Sequence record: PZ509022.1
Strand: one strand, 5' to 3'
Length of the DNA stretch: 64,000 nucleotides
Source of the DNA: a phage
Position numbers and translations under genes: made by a program. The notes under the pieces are model-generated. The model made no database searches. It had not been told where the DNA came from and saw only the letters and a program-made list of their open reading frames with translations. Positions 18,878 through 42,539 of the stretch are shown in pieces. Numbering within the stretch: position 1 is the stretch's first letter; every line of letters starts with the position of its first letter.

Positions 18878-19786
18878 TTAAGATTTAAGTAAATCAACGA
18901 TTTTAATTAATTTTTCACGCTCAGATTTAGCTTTACTACTCAATCCAGATAGTCTGAAAATTTCATCATCATATTGCTGAATAGAAATATTTAGCTCTTC
19001 AATCTGCTTATTAAAATAAGCAATTTGTTCAGAATGTTTTTCATTACTGCGAACTGGTACAGGTTTTGTAGGTAATTTAGTTGAACTGGATTCATCTGGG
19101 CGATAAATTAAAATGCAATTTGAACCAATCGGACATTTAGCACCAGACACATATTCTAATATTCCGGCTTCTTTTAAAACTTCAAAAGCTAAACAGAGAT
19201 GATGCCCCATATTAACATAATCTGTAGAGCGAGCTCTGATGTAATAATCATCTCCACGAGTACTAAATTTAAAGCATTTAAGGTCTTCTGTATTATTGGT
19301 CTTAAAAATCATTTGTTTATCTAGACCTTTAGCTAATCGAGCGCCTAATGCTAATAATCGTCTTTGATTTTCCCACAAATCTGCGATCATTTGGTCAAAT
19401 GATAATTTCGGCATTAGTCGACCATAAAGGTCGTATCCTTTATTATAATTGCGAAGGATTTCACTCGCATTAATACGAGACAATGCTCCAATTTTATTAA
19501 GGGCTTTCATAATGCGATTAGATAAACCCATTCCAGACCCGTTTGTTCGCTGCAAATGTTTTTCTAATCCAAATCCAATATCAACTTTAAACTTATCTAA
19601 AATTTCTGCATGAACATCTCTGTCAATAACATTCAAATCCAAAGTTGGGTTAAATCTATGAAAAAATTTATCTGGCTCTCCACGACGAAGTACAGTCCAT
19701 TCATTTGATTTTTTATTAACTAAAGATTTAATTACTGCATTGACATTATTAATTACTACTGACATATTTTCCTCACTCAATTTCAA
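18878..19786 (-). CDS. Hypothetical protein, paralog family member 4
   Basis: 302-aa ORF; C-terminal coiled coil (QIEELNISIQQYDDEIFRLSGLSSKAKSEREKLIKIVDLLKS). Confidence 0.65.
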   Translation of the reverse strand: MKLSEENMSVVINNVNAVIKSLVNKKSNEWTVLRRGEPDKFFHRFNPTLDLNVIDRDVHAEILDKFKVDIGFGLEKHLQRTNGSGMGLSNRIMKALNKIGALSRINASEILRNYNKGYDLYGRLMPKLSFDQMIADLWENQRRLLALGARLAKGLDKQMIFKTNNTEDLKCFKFSTRGDDYYIRARSTDYVNMGHHLCLAFEVLKEAGILEYVSGAKCPIGSNCILIYRPDESSSTKLPTKPVPVRSNEKHSEQIAYFNKQIEELNISIQQYDDEIFRLSGLSSKAKSEREKLIKIVDLLKS

Positions 19787-20186
19787 TTTTAATTTTACTA
19801 AATACGCAGAATATGATGGAAAAGACTATATAAGCACCACACACAGATTGAACTAATACCATTCCAAAGAACCAAACAATATTATCAAACAATGTCTGTT
19901 TTACGTCGAAAGGACGTAAACTTACAGTAATATTATCGCCTTTTTCTATTGATGAATACATCTCTGGGGAAATATATTCACTAAATCTATAACCGTCTTT
20001 GAGTTCATATACGGCAATAAACGATAAACTAGACCCCTTTCCTTGAGTTCCTGTAAGGGTATTAACTACAGTAACATCATAATCTTTATAATGCATATAA
20101 TCATTAATTGCGTAATAACCATATGCAACTACTACGCATAAACAACATATCAATAAATTCAATCTTTTAATTATCAACTGTTTCAT
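19773..20186 (-). CDS. Membrane protein
   Basis: 137-aa ORF with hydrophobic segments at both ends. Confidence 0.6.
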   Translation of the reverse strand: MKQLIIKRLNLLICCLCVVVAYGYYAINDYMHYKDYDVTVVNTLTGTQGKGSSLSFIAVYELKDGYRFSEYISPEMYSSIEKGDNITVSLRPFDVKQTLFDNIVWFFGMVLVQSVCGAYIVFSIIFCVFSKIKIEIE

Positions 20187-32993: not shown

Positions 32994-33410
32994 TTAAATG
33001 TAAATATTTTTGCCGTAATACTTATACCAGTGTGGCTTCATTAAAATTTTTTCATCGAGTCGTTGTTGACTCAACTTAATAGCTGATTTGCATGGATTAT
33101 AATCATTTTTCCATTCTACTGGAATATCGCTGATGTCAGGAACTTCAGTATCTTTTATACTGAACCCGCGTTTTAAGCATTCCGTTATAATGTCCGATTG
33201 ACGCTTTCGCAAAAATTCTAACTTATCGTAAAAGAAAGTAACATGACCAGAACCTAAAATAAATTTAGAAGATATTTTAAAATCTTTAACACGCTTACCA
33301 TTTGCCACATGCTTACGAACTATACCAAAAACACGCGGCAATTCACGGTATTCTGCGATTAAATGTTGATCAGCAAGTTCAGATACTAAAGTCAAATTAA
33401 TACGAGTCAT
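32994..33410 (-). CDS. denV: Endonuclease V (pyrimidine dimer DNA glycosylase) DenV
   Basis: 138-aa ORF starting [17 protein letters not shown]..., matching T4 endonuclease V. Confidence 0.93.
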
Positions 33411-33469: not shown

Positions 33470-34000
<531 letters not shown>

Positions 34001-34456
34001 TTAAAAGAGGCTGTTCATTATTCGGTAAAGTGAAGGACCCATCACATATTGCCACTGAGTACGAGGAATAAGAGCAAAAGCATCCATCTCTGGAATCATA
34101 ACGCCATCTTTATTTTCAAAATAAGACTCGCAATGGCAATTTCTAAACATCTCATGCTCTACTGGAATCGTATAATAAAATAACTGTAAGTCTTTATTAC
34201 TAGAATATTTAAATACACCTAGGTCTTCTAGAAGGTCTGGATTATAATTGCTAAAACCGGTCTCTTCTAAGCATTCTCTTTTTGCAGCTTCCAGTGCATT
34301 CAAATCAGAACTTTCTACACGTCCCTTTGGAATATCCCAGCGATGTGCCATCATTCCAGGCTTACGAGAACCAGTAACCCGACCCATAAATAAATCTTTA
34401 TCTTCTGTCATGAAGATAATACCAGCTGATAATGTTTTCATTTTAATTTCCTGCAT
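34001..34456 (-). CDS. nudE: Nudix hydrolase NudE (e.1)
   Basis: 151-aa ORF with a Nudix box (GRVESSDLNALEAAKRECLEETGF). Confidence 0.85.
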   Translation of the reverse strand: MQEIKMKTLSAGIIFMTEDKDLFMGRVTGSRKPGMMAHRWDIPKGRVESSDLNALEAAKRECLEETGFSNYNPDLLEDLGVFKYSSNKDLQLFYYTIPVEHEMFRNCHCESYFENKDGVMIPEMDAFALIPRTQWQYVMGPSLYRIMNSLF

Positions 34457-36877: not shown

Positions 36878-36978
36878 AGTATTTCCTTAGGTTAATTGAG
36901 ATTTAAAATCCGTAGGAGTATAATACTCTATCGTCAAATTATAGGCTCATAATATCTCAATCATGAGCCTGCGTAAAC

Positions 36979-37242
36979 TTATTTCATATTATTGAAATAT
37001 TCTTCTGCGATTTCGTCGTTATCATGGTAAACTTTAGAAGACAGTTTAACATAACCTTCTGCTGTGAACATATTAATCACAACTTTTACAGTATACCACT
37101 GACCGTCTTCATTACCCATTACTGCGTAAGTTTCAAACATCGGATGATCAGGACCGATAACTTTAATATCATTCACTGTACGACCGAAATATTCTGAAAC
37201 GCATTTCATAAAGAAGTTGAACAGTTCGCCGTAATTATCCAT
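36979..37242 (-). CDS. Hypothetical protein (start at the internal Met)
   Basis: Start placed at MDNYGELFNFF (37242) because an early promoter (-10 at 37286-37291) lies inside the longer ORF; GGAG ribosome-binding site upstream. Confidence 0.5.
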   Translation of the reverse strand: MDNYGELFNFFMKCVSEYFGRTVNDIKVIGPDHPMFETYAVMGNEDGQWYTVKVVINMFTAEGYVKLSSKVYHDNDEIAEEYFNNMK

Positions 37243-37283
37243 TTCATTCTCCAAGTTGTTTTCTGTATCAGTAGTTGATAGTT

Positions 37284-37316
37284 GTATAGTACCATGGAAG
37301 AACAGAGATGTAAACA
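37284..37316 (-). promoter_or_regulatory. Sigma70-type early promoter on the minus strand
   Basis: Plus strand shows gtaaac at 37310-37315, a 17-bp spacer, and atagta at 37286-37291. Confidence 0.5.
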
Positions 37317-37444
37317 GTTTTGTGAAAAAATTTTTAGGGAATTCTAGGGCAGGGATGGGCAATTAAAGGATAGGATAATATATTATAAAGGGTATAAACT
37401 AAATGATGCCTAGAGAGGTCCAGAAAGGCCTAGATACCAAAAAG

Positions 37445-37463
37445 CCCTATCATTTAGATAGGG
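37445..37463 (-). terminator. Rho-independent terminator (minus strand) after the internal-protein gene
   Basis: CCCTATC-ATTTA-GATAGGG hairpin followed on the minus strand by UUUUU. Confidence 0.55.
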
Positions 37464-37471
37464 ATTTAAAA

Positions 37472-38035
37472 TTATTTACCTAGTTTACTTATTATAGCTT
37501 CTGCAGCAGCTTTTAGCTTAGATGCAGTGTTAATACGATTTTTAATTTCAGTATACGCATCGCCAAGAACATCAAGGCTATCAGAATAAACACTTACACT
37601 ATTGCGTTCGCTATTTGAAATAGAACCTTTAGTTTTGCGGTCAAAATCGGTGTACACGTCTTGAAGATCGCGGGCTGCCTTCTTTGCATCATCCAATGCA
37701 TCAAGAGCTTTATTCAAAGCATTAACGTATTTTTTAGTGTCGAACATATTCTTAGAAATTTTAACAGGTGCGCGTTCAGGAGTAGCTAACACAGATTTAG
37801 GAACCTGAGCGCCAGATGCCAATTTCTTAGAAATTTTGAAAAATGCTTTATTGAATTTATTTTCTTGACTCATTGTAAAAGAACTATTATCGATGTTGTA
37901 CATTTCAATAGCTTTAGCTTTCCACTTAAGAAAATCGCCGCGGTCTTTTGGGTCCAATTGGAAGAATACTTTAGTAAGATCTGCTTCAGATGGTAATTTT
38001 GCTGCTTCGGTTAAAAATTCGGCATAGGTTTTCAT
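37472..38035 (-). CDS. Capsid-targeted internal protein (IPIII-like)
   Basis: 187-aa ORF beginning MKTYAEFLTEA-AKLP: MKTY capsid-targeting start with an L-x-E prohead-protease site; basic, Ala/Lys-rich. Confidence 0.65.
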   Translation of the reverse strand: MKTYAEFLTEAAKLPSEADLTKVFFQLDPKDRGDFLKWKAKAIEMYNIDNSSFTMSQENKFNKAFFKISKKLASGAQVPKSVLATPERAPVKISKNMFDTKKYVNALNKALDALDDAKKAARDLQDVYTDFDRKTKGSISNSERNSVSVYSDSLDVLGDAYTEIKNRINTASKLKAAAEAIISKLGK

Positions 38036-38130
38036 TTAAAATCCTTGAAATAATTTATCGGTTGGTTATTAATTATTTATTACTTTGTTACTATCCGTAA
38101 CAGCGTTATCCGAGTGATTCAAACTAAAAA

Positions 38131-38152
38131 GCCCCAACCTTTCGGTCGGGGC
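38131..38152 (-). terminator. Rho-independent terminator (minus strand) ending the tRNA/stable-RNA transcription unit
   Basis: GCCCC-GACC-GAAA-GGTT-GGGGC hairpin followed on the minus-strand RNA by UUUUU. Confidence 0.55.
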
Positions 38153-38460
38153 TAAGCCTTGCGGCAACCTTGTCGGGGTTCCACCTGCTAAGGCAAGTGT
38201 TTGTACGAAACGCCGGGATTCGAACCCGGTTATTAAGCAGTTGACGCTACTCAATATTTTTAAAAGGCCATATCTCGACCATATCCGAACGTTCCGTCAA
38301 AAACGCTACTCGGCTTACGGCAAAGATATTTCCTCGAATCGATAATTCGGTGCGCCGTTTCTGCTGTGATGTAAGGGGATATTAACAAATCGTAAAGATT
38401 TGTTAAGACCAGTCCTTACTCAGGGAACATCAGTCCGACGACTTACCGGTAGCGACCCGG
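38153..38460 (-). ncRNA. Structured non-coding RNA region, possibly T4-type stable RNAs (species 1/2); exact ends undetermined
   Basis: No credible ORF; T-arm-like element CCGGGTTCGAATCCCGG, GNRA hairpins (GCCGCAAGGC); sits where T4 carries rnaC/rnaD next to the tRNAs. Confidence 0.35.
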
Positions 38461-38464
38461 TTTC

Positions 38465-38815
38465 TTAATATTCTTTTAAAGCATCAATCTGTTCACGGCG
38501 TTTACGCCATAAATCAATTGCTTCATACGCAGATTCAGCATTTCGAATTAGACGGCATTTATATAAAGACTCGTGATTTTGATATTGCGTAGATAACGTA
38601 ATTTTATCTAAAAGGTCTTTACGTTCAAAGTATTCGTAACCATCTAAGCCAAATGAACGATTTTTGAGAAATTGCCAATGACCATATTCGTTTTCGACAT
38701 AAACATAATCCGCGTGTTGATAAAGCAAATTAATTACACGTTCAGAAATAACAGTGTCATTGTGATTAAAATAAAATGTTAAATCATGAACTACTAAATA
38801 AACATTACCTTTCAT
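38465..38815 (-). CDS. Hypothetical protein
   Basis: 116-aa ORF starting 16 nt downstream of tRNA-Arg. Confidence 0.55.
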   Translation of the reverse strand: MKGNVYLVVHDLTFYFNHNDTVISERVINLLYQHADYVYVENEYGHWQFLKNRSFGLDGYEYFERKDLLDKITLSTQYQNHESLYKCRLIRNAESAYEAIDLWRKRREQIDALKEY

Positions 38816-38831
38816 ATTTTCCTCACTTAAT

Positions 38832-38907
38832 TGGTCGAGGCAGTAGGGATCGAACCTACGACCTAGGACTTAGAAGGTCCTTGCTCTTCCTTCTGAGCTA
38901 TGCCCCG
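38832..38907 (-). tRNA. tRNA-Arg (anticodon UCU)
   Basis: Hand-folded 76-nt cloverleaf: acceptor CGGGGCA, anticodon loop CTTCTAA, T-arm GTAGG-TTCGATC-CCTAC, encoded CCA. Confidence 0.8.
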
Positions 38908-38911
38908 TAAT

Positions 38912-38987
38912 TGGGGTGACCGATGGGAGTCGAACCCATGACTACGAGAATCACAATCTCGAGTTCTACCAACTGAACTACGGCCAC
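38912..38987 (-). tRNA. tRNA-His (anticodon GUG)
   Basis: Hand-folded 76-nt cloverleaf: acceptor GTGGCCG, anticodon stem CGAGA/TCTCG, loop TTGTGAT, T-loop TTCGACT, CCA. Confidence 0.7.
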
Positions 38988-39081
38988 ATTAATACCTACT
39001 CCAACAATCAAGATGTCTTCACACGAAATTAAGAGAAGAGTGATCAGTTCAACCCCGATAATCGCGTCAAGTAGATATTAA

Positions 39082-39097
39082 TGTGACAATTGTCACA
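39082..39097. promoter_or_regulatory. Perfect 16-bp palindrome TGTGACAATTGTCACA (CRP-consensus-like half sites TGTGA-N6-TCACA)
   Basis: Read directly in the spacer between tRNA-Asn and tRNA-His. Confidence 0.3.
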
Positions 39098-39101
39098 AAT
39101 T

Positions 39102-39176
39102 TGGCGGACGTGATAGGATTCGAACCTATAACCAATCGCTTAACAGGCGATCGCTCTGCCATTGAGCTACACATCC
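39102..39176 (-). tRNA. tRNA-Asn (anticodon GUU)
   Basis: Hand-folded 75-nt cloverleaf: acceptor GGATGTG, anticodon stem ATCGC/GCGAT, loop CTGTTAA, T-loop TTCGAAT, CCA. Confidence 0.7.
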
Positions 39177-39180
39177 AAAT

Positions 39181-39267
39181 TGGTGGGGAGTGATGGAGTC
39201 GAACCACCCGAGTCGCAATGACAATGGATTTACAGTCCACACCGCTACCTCTACGGGATAACTCCCC
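39181..39267 (-). tRNA. tRNA-Tyr (anticodon GUA), type II with long variable arm
   Basis: 87-nt: acceptor GGGGAGT, anticodon loop CTGTAAA, long variable arm, T-loop TTCGACT, CCA. Confidence 0.6.
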
Positions 39268-39280
39268 TTAATTCTTAATT

Positions 39281-39355
39281 TGGTGGCCCTGGGTGGAATT
39301 GAACCACCATCTGGCGATTATGAGTCGCTTGCTTGAACCTTCCAGCTACAGGGCC
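39281..39355 (-). tRNA. tRNA with CAU anticodon (Met, or Ile if lysidine-modified)
   Basis: 75-nt: acceptor GGCCCTG/CAGGGCC, anticodon loop CTCATAA, T-arm GGTGG-TTCAATT-CCACC, CCA. Confidence 0.6.
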
Positions 39356-39356
39356 T

Positions 39357-39432
39357 TGGTGCTGATTGACGGAATCGAACCGCCGACCTTCTCATTACAA
39401 GTGAGTTGCTCTACCTACTGAGCTAAATCAGC
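39357..39432 (-). tRNA. tRNA-Thr (anticodon UGU)
   Basis: 76-nt: acceptor GCTGATT/AATCAGC, anticodon loop CTTGTAA, T-loop TTCGATT, CCA. Confidence 0.7.
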
Positions 39433-39437
39433 AAAAC

Positions 39438-39527
39438 TGGCGGAGGCGATAGGATTTGAACCTATGAGTCGCCGGAGCGACTGCCGGTTTTCAAGACCGG
39501 TGCATTAAACCACTCTGCCACGCCTCC
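39438..39527 (-). tRNA. tRNA-Ser (anticodon UGA), type II
   Basis: 90-nt: acceptor GGAGGCG, anticodon stem CCGGT/ACCGG, loop CTTGAAA, long variable arm, T-loop TTCAAAT, CCA. Confidence 0.75.
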
Positions 39528-39530
39528 AAA

Positions 39531-39538
39531 TATTTATA
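39531..39538 (-). promoter_or_regulatory. Late-promoter-like TATAAATA box (minus strand) at the segB 3' end / tRNA-Ser 5' junction
   Basis: Plus strand tatttata at 39531-39538, about 4-11 nt upstream of the tRNA-Ser 5' end. Confidence 0.35.
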
Positions 39539-40184
39539 TATTGTTAATTTGATTTAGAATTCTTTTTGCTTGAGTATGACTTACACCAATATGCTTAGCA
39601 TATTTAGATAATTCACCACGCTTAGAAAAATCATATAATTTAGAAATTTCTATTCTTCTTTTTCTTTCATCCGCCGAAACTTTTGCTTCGTTTGCTTTTG
39701 CTATTTTACGTTTAGCTTCTTGAGAGTGAGTTTTACCAGCAAAGCCATTCTTCATTAATCCATTTGAAGACCATCCTTTTAATTTTCCGTTAGAATGTGC
39801 CTTTTTAACACCCAATGAAATTAATTCGCGTTGCTGGTCTGTCATAGGATAATTATTTATATGATCCCATCCACCTTCACCACCAAGTTTTAAATTATAC
39901 ACATCTGGTCTATTTAAAAACTCTTCCGTGACAATATTTTTCTCGGCTTCAAGCATAGATTCTTTATCATCAAAATACTCTAATATTTCTTTAGAAAAAT
40001 TTTCTATACCATACTTATCTTGGGCTCTTTTTAATAATTTACCAGAACCCATATATCCATCATCTAAATTTTCGGTAGAATGCACACCAATATAAATTTT
40101 ATTATTAATTTTATTTGTTATTTTATAAAGATAAAAATGCATATCAGTCCCTAATAAAGAACTGAGCGTCTCACGACGAGTCAT
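39534..40184 (-). CDS. segB: GIY-YIG homing endonuclease SegB, inserted within the tRNA cluster
   Basis: 216-aa ORF; N-terminal GIY-YIG motif (YLYKITNKINNKIYIGVHS); occupies the gap between tRNA-Gly and tRNA-Ser as segB does in T4. Confidence 0.85.
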   Translation of the reverse strand: MTRRETLSSLLGTDMHFYLYKITNKINNKIYIGVHSTENLDDGYMGSGKLLKRAQDKYGIENFSKEILEYFDDKESMLEAEKNIVTEEFLNRPDVYNLKLGGEGGWDHINNYPMTDQQRELISLGVKKAHSNGKLKGWSSNGLMKNGFAGKTHSQEAKRKIAKANEAKVSADERKRRIEISKLYDFSKRGELSKYAKHIGVSHTQAKRILNQINNI

Positions 40185-40187
40185 AAA

Positions 40188-40261
<74 letters not shown>

Positions 40262-40266
40262 CAAAT

Positions 40267-40353
40267 TTGGTGCGAGAAGTGGGACTCGAACCCACAAGGA
40301 AATCATTCCGCAGCATTTTAAGTGCTGTGCCTTTACCAATTTGACCATTCTCG
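40267..40353 (-). tRNA. tRNA-Leu (anticodon UAA), type II
   Basis: 87-nt: acceptor GCGAGAA, anticodon stem CAGCA/TGCTG, loop CTTAAAA, long variable arm, T-arm GTGGG-TTCGAGT-CCCAC, CCA. Confidence 0.8.
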
Positions 40354-40354
40354 C

Positions 40355-40427
40355 GCTGGGAATAAAGGACTCGAACCTTTGCATCCTGGAATCAAAATCC
40401 AGTGCCTTACCAACTTGGCTAATTCCC
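40355..40427 (-). tRNA. tRNA-Gln (anticodon UUG), CCA not encoded
   Basis: Acceptor TGGGAAT/ATTCCCA, anticodon stem CTGGA/TCCAG, loop TTTTGAT, T-arm AAAGG-TTCGAGT-CCTTT; 1-nt spacer to tRNA-Leu (dimeric precursor arrangement). Confidence 0.75.
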
Positions 40428-40525
40428 AATTATTAACAAAGGCTCTCAAGCAAGAACCCTTGATGATAGAGGGTATTAATCAGTGCGATATGAGTTAATA
40501 ATAACAAATAATTCTTAAAGCATAT

Positions 40526-40813
40526 TTACCATTTATGATAATACATATTTATGATGCATTCAAGACCCAAAGGATTCTTGAAAATATCATATTCAAGAGG
40601 ACCTTTTTCTGTTTCAATAAAGAAATCAAAATTTACTGTATTAAATTTACGATCTTCCTTTACTAATTTAACCTGCGAAGATGAACGATCAATGTAAACC
40701 TTTTCAACTTCAAAACATGTTAAAATGCCATAATCATTAATCAAGGCTTTAGCTGCTTCTTGATCATATTTATATCCATTTTCAACAGACGATACTTTTG
40801 CATAAAGAATCAT
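40526..40813 (-). CDS. Hypothetical protein
   Basis: 95-aa ORF. Confidence 0.5.
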   Translation of the reverse strand: MILYAKVSSVENGYKYDQEAAKALINDYGILTCFEVEKVYIDRSSSQVKLVKEDRKFNTVNFDFFIETEKGPLEYDIFKNPLGLECIINMYYHKW

Positions 40814-40815
40814 TA

Positions 40816-41220
40816 TTAACCTTTATCAACAATAGTGTGAGTATGGGCATTTACAATTTGCCACCAATCGAAACTATCGCCAAATCGTTTTGATTTATTG
40901 TCTTCAATAATTTGACGTAATTCATCTTCTGTTTCAGCATACGCAATCAAATCATCATATCCACCGCAAGGATAATAATTATCGCCTGCAAACAAAAGAA
41001 AATTTACTTTAGATGGGTCTACATAATAATGCTCTTTAGGATATTTAGTTCCTTTCCAATCAGTTACTTCAACATAACGGTAAGAAAATCCATTTTTACT
41101 TTCAACCCAACTCCACGCTTCAAAAGGAGTATTAAAAACTCTATCAGGTATTAAATTACCTTCAAAATGAGAAGGATTTGCATAATCCCCAGCATAAACA
41201 TAATATTCGTTAATATTCAT
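40816..41220 (-). CDS. Hypothetical protein
   Basis: 134-aa ORF, aromatic-rich. Confidence 0.55.
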   Translation of the reverse strand: MNINEYYVYAGDYANPSHFEGNLIPDRVFNTPFEAWSWVESKNGFSYRYVEVTDWKGTKYPKEHYYVDPSKVNFLLFAGDNYYPCGGYDDLIAYAETEDELRQIIEDNKSKRFGDSFDWWQIVNAHTHTIVDKG

Positions 41221-41406
41221 TTATTCACCTTTAGAAATTTTATCCATAACGATAGCAATTAAACCAATTAAAAATGCTACTACAAGTGAAAAAACATTTT
41301 CTGCTGTAGTCAATAATCCGCATATAAATCCAACAAACATTGAAAAACTAAAAGCAGAAGCAGAAATTGCAATAGCAACATTTCGAATTAATTCACAACG
41401 TTTCAT
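41221..41406 (-). CDS. Small membrane protein
   Basis: 61-aa ORF with two hydrophobic helices; early promoter and GGAG ribosome-binding site upstream. Confidence 0.55.
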   Translation of the reverse strand: MKRCELIRNVAIAISASAFSFSMFVGFICGLLTTAENVFSLVVAFLIGLIAIVMDKISKGE

Positions 41407-41432
41407 TTTATTCTCCTCGGTAGTTGATAGGG

Positions 41433-41465
41433 TAATAGTATCACAACTAAAACCCTATGTAAACA
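41433..41465 (-). promoter_or_regulatory. Sigma70-type early promoter on the minus strand
   Basis: Plus strand shows gtaaac at 41459-41464, a 17-bp spacer, and atagta at 41435-41440. Confidence 0.5.
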
Positions 41466-41482
41466 ACTTTGTGAAATATTTA

Positions 41483-41770
41483 TTACAAAAGATTTTTAGC
41501 AATAATCTTGAGATGTGCTGCAGAAATGTGTTTAGCTTTAAACAACGCAGTTTCTTCGGCAGGAGAGATAACGATTGTAGCACCATCCTTTTTAGCAGAC
41601 CACCCATCACCTAGGTAAACAGTACCTTTGATTTCTTCGCCATCAACCAAGCTAATCATTGGTTTACCTTCTCGTCCTTTATTTGCTTTAATAACTTCAG
41701 AAGTAAGAGTAGCCTCGGTAATGGTAGAAACCGGGGTAGTTGTAGAAGTAAATTCTTTAAATGTTTTCAT
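41483..41770 (-). CDS. ipI: Internal protein I (capsid-packaged, injected with the DNA)
   Basis: 95-aa ORF starting MKTFKEF with an ITEA prohead-protease site; size and position match T4 ipI. Confidence 0.8.
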   Translation of the reverse strand: MKTFKEFTSTTTPVSTITEATLTSEVIKANKGREGKPMISLVDGEEIKGTVYLGDGWSAKKDGATIVISPAEETALFKAKHISAAHLKIIAKNLL

Positions 41771-41798: not shown

Positions 41799-41831
41799 TA
41801 ATAGTATCACTACCTCATCAACGTGTAAACA
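41799..41831 (-). promoter_or_regulatory. Sigma70-type early promoter upstream of ipI
   Basis: Plus strand shows gtaaac at 41825-41830, a 17-bp spacer, and atagta at 41801-41806. Confidence 0.5.
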
Positions 41832-41842
41832 ACTTTGTGAAA

Positions 41843-42539
<697 letters not shown>

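Follow-up and report, generated by a model that had tools for sequence, protein, structure and literature searches.

Which genes of a T4-related phage send their products into the head, and do they lie only where the T4 map places them? The question was raised by a 64,000-nucleotide stretch of the phage record PZ509022.1, referred to here in full as the window, in which an open reading frame (ORF) for 187 amino acids just upstream of e.8 starts like the gene of a head internal protein (IP). Host immunity meets the injected internal proteins before any other phage molecule, and it took decades of searching before the three T4 internal proteins were recognised as specific inhibitors of type IV restriction enzymes. 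It is probable that the 187-residue ORF encodes a head internal protein whose family is not yet annotated as such, and that protein, its neighbour ipI and the site between rnaC and e.8 are the subjects of this analysis.

The start of the protein is the most direct evidence. The 187-residue ORF begins MKTYAEFLTE and continues with Ala, placing L-T-E at residues 8–10 and the cut site, L8-T9-E10, before A11. The product of ipI begins MKTFKEF...STITE, also followed by Ala, with I-T-E at residues 17–19 and the cut site before A20. A six-frame scan of the whole 64 kb for MK[TS][YFW]x[ED][FLIM] returned exactly these two matches, each at the start of an ORF, as did a looser pattern; the chance expectation was a mean of 0.05 over 200 block shuffles, none of which (0/200) reached two. 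A single L/I-x-E site is present in the 187-residue protein, at the end of the leader, and its mature part has none, likewise mature ipI. Mutagenesis of IPIII assigned residues 4 and 7 to targeting and residues 8 and 10 to processing (PMC9026906), and the 187-residue ORF keeps all four of these positions (Y4, F7, L8 and E10, with Ala next). The same constraint was evident in a survey of 16 genomes, anchored on e.8 and made up of the window, all ten e.8-encoding IMG/VR loci, T4, RB69, teqdroes, DalCa and fD1: position 4 was Y or F and position 7 was F in all 73 of the 73 leader-bearing ORFs. Leu occupies position 8 in every leader upstream of e.8, and the leaders of the classical loci mostly have Ile. 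The first-pass annotation of the window had singled out two ORFs by an MKT(Y/F)xEF start and a prohead-protease site, and both are there, on the minus strand; judged by residues, each bears a bona fide capsid-targeting sequence and protease site.

A start of this kind might also arise without packaging. Many IP genes resemble one another in DNA over their first 33 nt, a stretch that possibly acts as a recombination linker; the leader-like start would then be left over from recombination at a shared segment, and the protein would be an ordinary cytoplasmic late protein. This explanation appears very unlikely, however, considering that the leader is conserved at the protein level, via synonymous and conservative changes, in homologues whose bodies have fallen to 28–36% identity (MITFNEFLNES in the distant relative P0013, described below, and MKTYNEFLNES in a 205-residue protein of JS98-type phages), and that all four functionally mapped positions are kept. 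In addition, the first ten residues of IPIII suffice to package foreign proteins such as green fluorescent protein (PMC9026906), because of which a protein with this leader that is made late would be expected in the head whatever its purpose. Packaging and processing of the 187-residue protein are thus rated as highly probable.

The smaller of the two genes proved to be ordinary. The first-pass annotation had called it ipI, and the alignment with T4 IPI was exact, with 95/95 residues identical. Pfam IPI_T4 (PF11634) matched it with a score of 180 bits, where the cutoff is 25 (E 7e-54, residues 20–95), the domain beginning at residue 20, the known start of mature IPI*, and its neighbours are trna.4 and 57B, as in T4. 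Going by sequence, it is the same protein as T4 IPI, which inhibits the GmrSD of E. coli CT596, and is nothing new, and the inhibition of GmrSD can be ascribed to it because it is identical to the characterised protein. The 57B homologue directly upstream of ipI matches Pfam Acb1, a nuclease directed against the cyclic oligonucleotide-based antiphage signaling system (CBASS), at E 2.6e-60, which puts two anti-defence genes side by side. The 187-residue protein has only the MKT(Y/F)xEF start in common with T4 IPI.

Its resemblance to T4 IPIII (Ip3, the inhibitor of GmrSD from E. coli ECOR17) is closer, with a ten-residue leader, a site for the prohead protease gp21 after Glu10, a non-essential gene that is variably present among T-even phages, and a basic, lysine-rich mature form of about 20 kDa. 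The predicted mature product has 177 residues, 19.6 kDa, an isoelectric point (pI) of 9.54, 14.7% Lys and a net charge of +9, compared to 183 residues, 20.4 kDa, 9.65, 13.7% and +10 for T4 IPIII*. The label "IPIII-like", given in the first-pass annotation, was therefore apt as to leader, size and charge but not as to homology: BLASTP aligned only residues 1–12 with IPIII and residues 1–11 with IPII, and homology to both was rejected. The label implied that T4 ipIII had been relocated, which the common leader, the lengths (187 and 193 residues), the similar charge and the empty ipIII site of the window would all accommodate. Already refuted at the level of sequence, this is improbable in the extreme. 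Past the leader, the mature parts have no detectable similarity, and the leaders themselves differ at residue 8 (Leu in the 187-residue protein, Ile in IPIII). The ORF falls in a different PHROG without an assigned function (PHROG 2280, "unknown function", E 2e-53), and Pfam has no family for it, giving only sub-threshold noise (17.7 bits to cytochrome b562, where 30 is the cutoff). The genes are also set in different surroundings, ipIII between denV and e with an early promoter and stem-loop, and the 187-residue gene upstream of e.8 with a late promoter motif. A tblastn search found IPIII in 261 records, and in those checked (ECML-134 and the sampled loci L007, L009 and L012–L014) it lay at the denV locus and never at the site upstream of e.8. 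As ECML-134 and L009 hold both an IPIII homologue beside denV and the 187-residue gene beside e.8, the latter is independent of ipIII and is not a relocated copy.

The family is widespread and uniform. Of the 165 phage records in which tblastn detected it, 164 have it at ≥95% identity and the remaining one at 85%, and among the 60 listed, every annotated row reads "hypothetical protein" or "Phage protein" (e.g., RB14ncORF136c). The window gene differs from the L009 copy by 21 synonymous and 8 non-synonymous changes, a ratio of non-synonymous to synonymous rates (pN/pS) of 0.10, and because of this ratio and its presence in 165 records the ORF is a real gene under purifying selection. A word-indexed search of 5.8 billion proteins returned near-identical relatives only. 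An exhaustive HMMER search of 1.84 billion representatives gave one informative distant relative, P0013 (204 residues, 31% identity, E 2.6e-6), as well as a repetitive match of 869 residues that was regarded as spurious. P0013 has other surroundings, being encoded close to a homologue of gene 30.3 on the short T4-like Logan contig SRR28624380_555336 (L004, 1419–2526), and the next gene carries ART-PolyVal/DUF3990 domains and is ADP-ribosyltransferase-like.

The surroundings of the gene were delimited by aligning the window with T4, teqdroes and DalCa. In T4, the spacer toward the e.8 promoter follows directly on the rnaC terminator GCCCCGACCGAAAGGTTGGGGCTTTTT, and at that exact point the window has an insertion of about 660 bp, composed of a 94-nt leader region, the gene and a second terminator. 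The DalCa record annotates a terminator at the position equivalent to this second one, and T4 homology resumes from there. The 94-nt gap, which follows a strong terminator, holds the motif AATAAATA; such motifs occur only 11 times on this strand in 64 kb. The A at −13 that replaces the first T is common in the late promoters of T4 relatives (PMC1524935). The 187-residue gene is thus a self-contained cassette of late-promoter motif, gene and terminator just after the rnaC terminator.

Other phages have other cassettes at the same point. In teqdroes, an ORF of 157 residues starting MKSYAQFLNEA has a perfect TATAAATA ahead of it and a second copy of the rnaC terminator behind it, and in DalCa the 187- and 157-residue cassettes stand in tandem. 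The duplicated terminator that flanks the 157-residue cassette would allow its loss by homologous recombination, giving the T4 arrangement, and cassettes have probably been gained and lost by recombination between such repeated terminator sequences. Genes in the two classical IP loci are described as flanked by promoter-early stem-loop (PeSL)-like cassettes (Repoila 1994 as described in PMC2839356). These are likewise single genes bracketed by repeats, with a promoter and a terminator, and able to mediate insertion and deletion by recombination. Unlike the cassette in the window, whose putative promoter is of the late (gp55) type and whose locus has as its repeat a GC-rich intrinsic terminator copied from the rnaC end, they have an early promoter and an overlapping AT-rich stem-loop.

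Across the survey, one or more leader-bearing ORFs, of 153, 154, 157, 187 or 205 residues, lay directly upstream of e.8 in every sampled genome but T4. A capsid-targeted ORF at this position is the rule among the T-even relatives and T4 is the exception. The site holds one or two cassettes, and DalCa, L008, L009 and L015 carry the 187- and 157-residue genes side by side. [AT]ATAAATA was found 34–48 nt before the ATG in 23 of the 23 site genes, the window's and the frameshifted copy of RB69 included, and the early-promoter motif GTTTAC[AT] in none of them (0/23). Elsewhere the picture was different. In the sampled arrays of the ipI locus, GTTTAC[AT] lay 60–68 nt upstream of the first gene and sometimes of the second too, the leader-bearing genes around denV had it at 81–84 nt or not at all, and a late motif within 110 nt was seen for only 2 of the 50 leader-bearing ORFs outside the rnaC–e.8 site. 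A count of empty, T4-like sites by a junction query was left unused, as the query joins pieces up to about 610 nt apart and a 157-residue insertion may score as contiguous.

The 157-residue family was found in 512 phage records and the 205-residue family in 144, with every annotated row listed for either reading "hypothetical"; the latter spans Dhakavirus, Mosigvirus and phages of Enterobacter, Kosakonia, Erwinia, Serratia and Klebsiella. The site ORFs RB32ORF132c/133c, AR1 ar1_137, fD1 g140 and the JS98 205-residue ORF resemble the 187-residue gene in locus, late motif, an MK(T/S)Yx(E/Q)FLxE leader and a plan of helical domain, linker and hairpin, and the 153–157- and 205-residue ORFs differ from it in length and in having only about 25–30% identity (28% for the JS98-type 205-residue protein). 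Comparison of the families gave E 3.5e-8 for 205 against 187 residues, about 4e-11 for 205 against 157 residues and 8e-31 for 205 residues against P0013, and a profile–profile comparison with the leader removed gave a 76% probability. The 153–157-, 187- and 205-residue families are probably interrelated, and homology between the 187- and 157-residue families in particular is likely but unproven.

RB69, which belongs to a different genus, has a copy of the 187-residue cassette (L005, NC_004928, 11429–11991) that is frameshifted into ORF148c and ORF149c. The two frames have 96% and 89% amino-acid identity to the window, and the flanking terminators and the leader region match closely, which suggests a recent horizontal transfer of the cassette between genera. 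The frameshift itself suggests either a pseudogene or a sequencing error.

It has been stated that IP genes are absent outside two polymorphic loci of T-even genomes, 57B–trna.4 and around denV–e (PMC2839356), and two IP loci are likewise described in more recent work (PMC12373910). The ipI gene of the window fits this description, and the 187-residue gene departs from it by its rnaC–e.8 position, its late motif and its intrinsic terminators. The two-locus rule belongs to the published description, however, and not to any mechanism. We lean, if only slightly, toward the reading that rnaC–e.8 is a third IP locus, the home of a late-expressed, injected superfamily (153–205 residues, Leu8) that would be present in most Tevenvirinae across several genera and have targets unlike those of Ip1, Ip2 and Ip3; as part of that reading, the locus would have been overlooked because T4 is empty there. 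In the literature consulted, neither a locus upstream of e.8 nor the ORF names or leader peptides were found, and priority is uncertain, because these ORFs may be among the "more than 30 IP variants" for which Comeau 2007 is cited. The denV-side locus also extends past the denV–e gap, as leader-bearing ORFs were seen on the far side of denV toward vs.8 in L005 (17558–18552), L007 (14553–15453), L009 (18479–19381), L015 (14262–14735), L010, L011 and L014 (all at about 19000–19800) and fD1 (L016, g129); the window has none there.

Taken together, the features suggest the following course of events. The 187-residue gene would be transcribed late from its own gp55-type promoter, as its motif implies, and the leader MKTYAEFLTE would direct the product into the scaffolding core of the prohead, where gp21 would cut after Glu10 and leave the neo-N-terminus AAKLPSEADLTK that begins at Ala11. 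The released mature form, predicted to be basic, all-helical and 19.6 kDa, would stay in the DNA-filled head and be ejected with the DNA into the next host, there most probably to neutralise a "first-response" defence. By analogy, the best guess for the target would be a subtype of the GmrSD-like type IV restriction enzymes that attack DNA with glucosylated hydroxymethylcytosine. A different GmrSD variant is blocked by each of the T4 proteins Ip1, Ip2 and Ip3 (PMC12373910), and Ip3 is active in the cytoplasm without its leader (PMC9391042). A further protein of the ipI locus, Bas37_0260, is required on E. coli K-12 BW25113 but not in the case of K-12 without McrA, McrBC and Mrr, and was under test as an inhibitor of these type IV systems (bioRxiv 10.1101/2025.11.20.689424). 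At the rnaC–e.8 site, g140, the 157-residue protein of the Yersinia phage fD1, was found in purified virions with liquid chromatography coupled to tandem mass spectrometry (PMC8309999 supplement). A specific anti-restriction role for the 187-residue protein itself is a tentative proposal that falls somewhat short of an even chance; precedent is what it draws on, the structural model having no informative neighbour.

Several observations weigh against this account. The motif AATAAATA is a one-mismatch variant of TATAAATA and is a putative promoter. The AlphaFold model of the 187-residue protein, which is all-helical and consists of a helical N-domain, a linker rich in Pro, Lys and Ala, and a long C-terminal helical hairpin, reached a modest predicted local distance difference test (pLDDT) score of 66. 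Foldseek recovered from the viral models of BFVD only the protein's own family and one Yersinia phage protein, and Foldseek against the PDB, together with a PDB sequence search, gave nothing meaningful, so the model holds no pointer to a target. In the fD1 virion list, DenV, lysozyme e and NudE likewise count as particle-associated, and the list is for that reason of low specificity. For the 187-residue family itself, no virion proteomics or injection data were found in the literature, the fPS-90 paper having none and the UFV13 paper four gel bands only. The frameshifted reference copy of RB69 makes the gene dispensable, at least in that strain. Lastly, ≥95% identity in 164 of the 165 records and near-universal occupancy of the site look more like a generally useful head component than a hypervariable arms-race factor, and the identity retained by the RB69 frames in a different genus is high conservation of the same kind.

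This conservation and occupancy would also suit a protein that serves the head, or the condensation of DNA, in a more general way. In the fullest form of this argument, the packaged protein would act mainly as a structural or physico-chemical part of the head, neutralising DNA charge or aiding the scaffold, as IPIII does in part, and standing in for IPII and IPIII, and would not be dedicated to anti-defence. Its size, pI and lysine content are those of IPIII*, the window has neither ipII nor ipIII, and expression appears from the motifs to be late only. Furthermore, head assembly is slower and bursts are smaller in IPIII mutants (PMC9026906), and solid-state nuclear magnetic resonance places the lysines of internal proteins in contact with DNA phosphates (PMC3012670). 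The gene is no simple substitute, however, as it coexists with an IPIII homologue in ECML-134 and L009, T4 thrives without a gene at the rnaC–e.8 site, and the RB69 copy is frameshifted. All three T4 internal proteins turned out to be specific restriction inhibitors despite their basic charge. A mainly structural role is therefore considered rather unlikely, at about one chance in four, and a packaged and injected protein with a role in the next host is preferred.

What appears to be new here, as read from the sequences, is that internal proteins have a third locus, expressed late, whose widespread family goes under "hypothetical" in all of the annotated records examined. If true, this contradicts the published confinement of IP genes to two sites. 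It also means that hundreds of therapeutic and model T-even phages already sequenced encode capsid-targeted proteins under the name "hypothetical protein", and the proteins of the site are candidates for new anti-defence functions or host-range determinants. A simple annotation rule, namely leader, late promoter and position, picks out their genes, and gain-of-function tests should be straightforward, because T4 naturally has no gene at this locus.

The genes of the wider region were identified by listing ORFs, scanning them against Pfam and PHROG, and comparing them with the annotated T4 record, and all are on the minus strand (Table 1). Megablast found relatives in over 1,100 phage records, which are mostly of Tequatrovirus; the top ones are about 96–97% identical and none is exact. 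From denV to gene 2, the window is collinear with T4. By rising coordinate, e.8 is followed by the 187-residue ORF, the rnaC- and rnaD-like RNAs, an ORF of 116 residues and ten tRNA genes, and beyond these come trna.2, trna.3, trna.4, ipI, 57B, 57A and genes 1, 3 and 2. The first-pass annotation had given the T4 order correctly: the T4 reference record reads denV–ipII–ipIII–e, which does not match the window, where denV and e are adjacent. The difference is real, but it is not peculiar to this phage and is common among T-even relatives, about 255 phage records having the same contiguous denV–e junction. The 187-residue gene, which had been placed downstream of the e.x genes, is upstream of e.8 in the direction of transcription. 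The core inference, capsid-targeted internal proteins arranged differently from T4, was sound.

Table 1. Features of the denV to 57B region, in window coordinates
Feature	Position	Strand	Remarks
denV	32994-33410	minus	Annotated by T4 comparison
e	33470-33964	minus	T4 comparison; denV–e gap 59 nt, without ipII or ipIII between
nudE	34001-34456	minus	Followed by e.2 to e.6 at increasing coordinates
e.8 homologue, 87 residues	36979-37242	minus	PHROG 2678; conserved right-hand neighbour of the locus
Early-type promoter of e.8	37314-37286	minus	
Intrinsic terminator straight after the 187-residue gene	37445-37463	minus	Downstream cassette boundary; CCCTATC-TAAAT-GATAGGG-CTTTTT
187-residue ORF, candidate internal protein	37472-38035	minus	Codons 1–10 (38035-38006) are the leader
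Shine-Dalgarno AAGGA of the 187-residue gene	38042-38046	minus	6 nt before ATG, read from sequence
Late-promoter-like motif AATAAATA	38074-38081	minus	First base 46 nt upstream of ATG
Intrinsic terminator of the tRNA/rnaC unit	38130-38153	minus	Upstream cassette boundary; 10-bp stem and T run; aligns with T4 rnaC terminator
rnaC-like and rnaD-like small stable RNAs	38204-38465	minus	Approximate, transferred from T4
116-residue ORF	38465-38815	minus	PHROG 3355, unknown function
tRNA cluster, ten genes	38832-40428	minus	Arg, His, Asn, Tyr, Met, Thr, Ser, Gly, Leu, Gln
segB-like GIY-YIG homing endonuclease gene	39534-40184		Splits the tRNA cluster after Ser
ipI, 95-residue precursor	41483-41770	minus	Leader residues 1–19 (41770-41714); mature IPI* 76 residues
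Early-type promoter TTTACA-17-TACTAT upstream of ipI	41801-41829	minus	With overlapping stem-loop
57B homologue	41843-42298	minus	Pfam Acb1

The start of e.8 required correction. The mechanical ORF list gave it as 36979–37362, overextended by 40 codons from a TTG, and comparison with T4, DalCa and teqdroes set the real start at the ATG at 37242. As the TTG extension is spurious, the first coordinate of the span 36979–41770 is the stop of e.8 and not an internal-protein gene. Next to it, e.7 is absent at 36878–36978, where e.6 is followed by about 100 nt and then e.8; DalCa is likewise without e.7, which T4 and teqdroes have.

On the other side of the cassette, the rnaC- and rnaD-like stretch is 94% identical in DNA to T4 70827–71168, which includes rnaC and rnaD, and Rfam has no family for either RNA. 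The 116-residue ORF, between the rnaD-like RNA and tRNA-Arg, has no capsid-targeting leader; absent from T4, it is present in RB69 (ORF150c), DalCa, teqdroes and several IMG/VR loci. The T4 tRNA cluster, for comparison, has eight genes (Arg, Ile, Thr, Ser, Pro, Gly, Leu and Gln), and it is split at a different point from that of the window.

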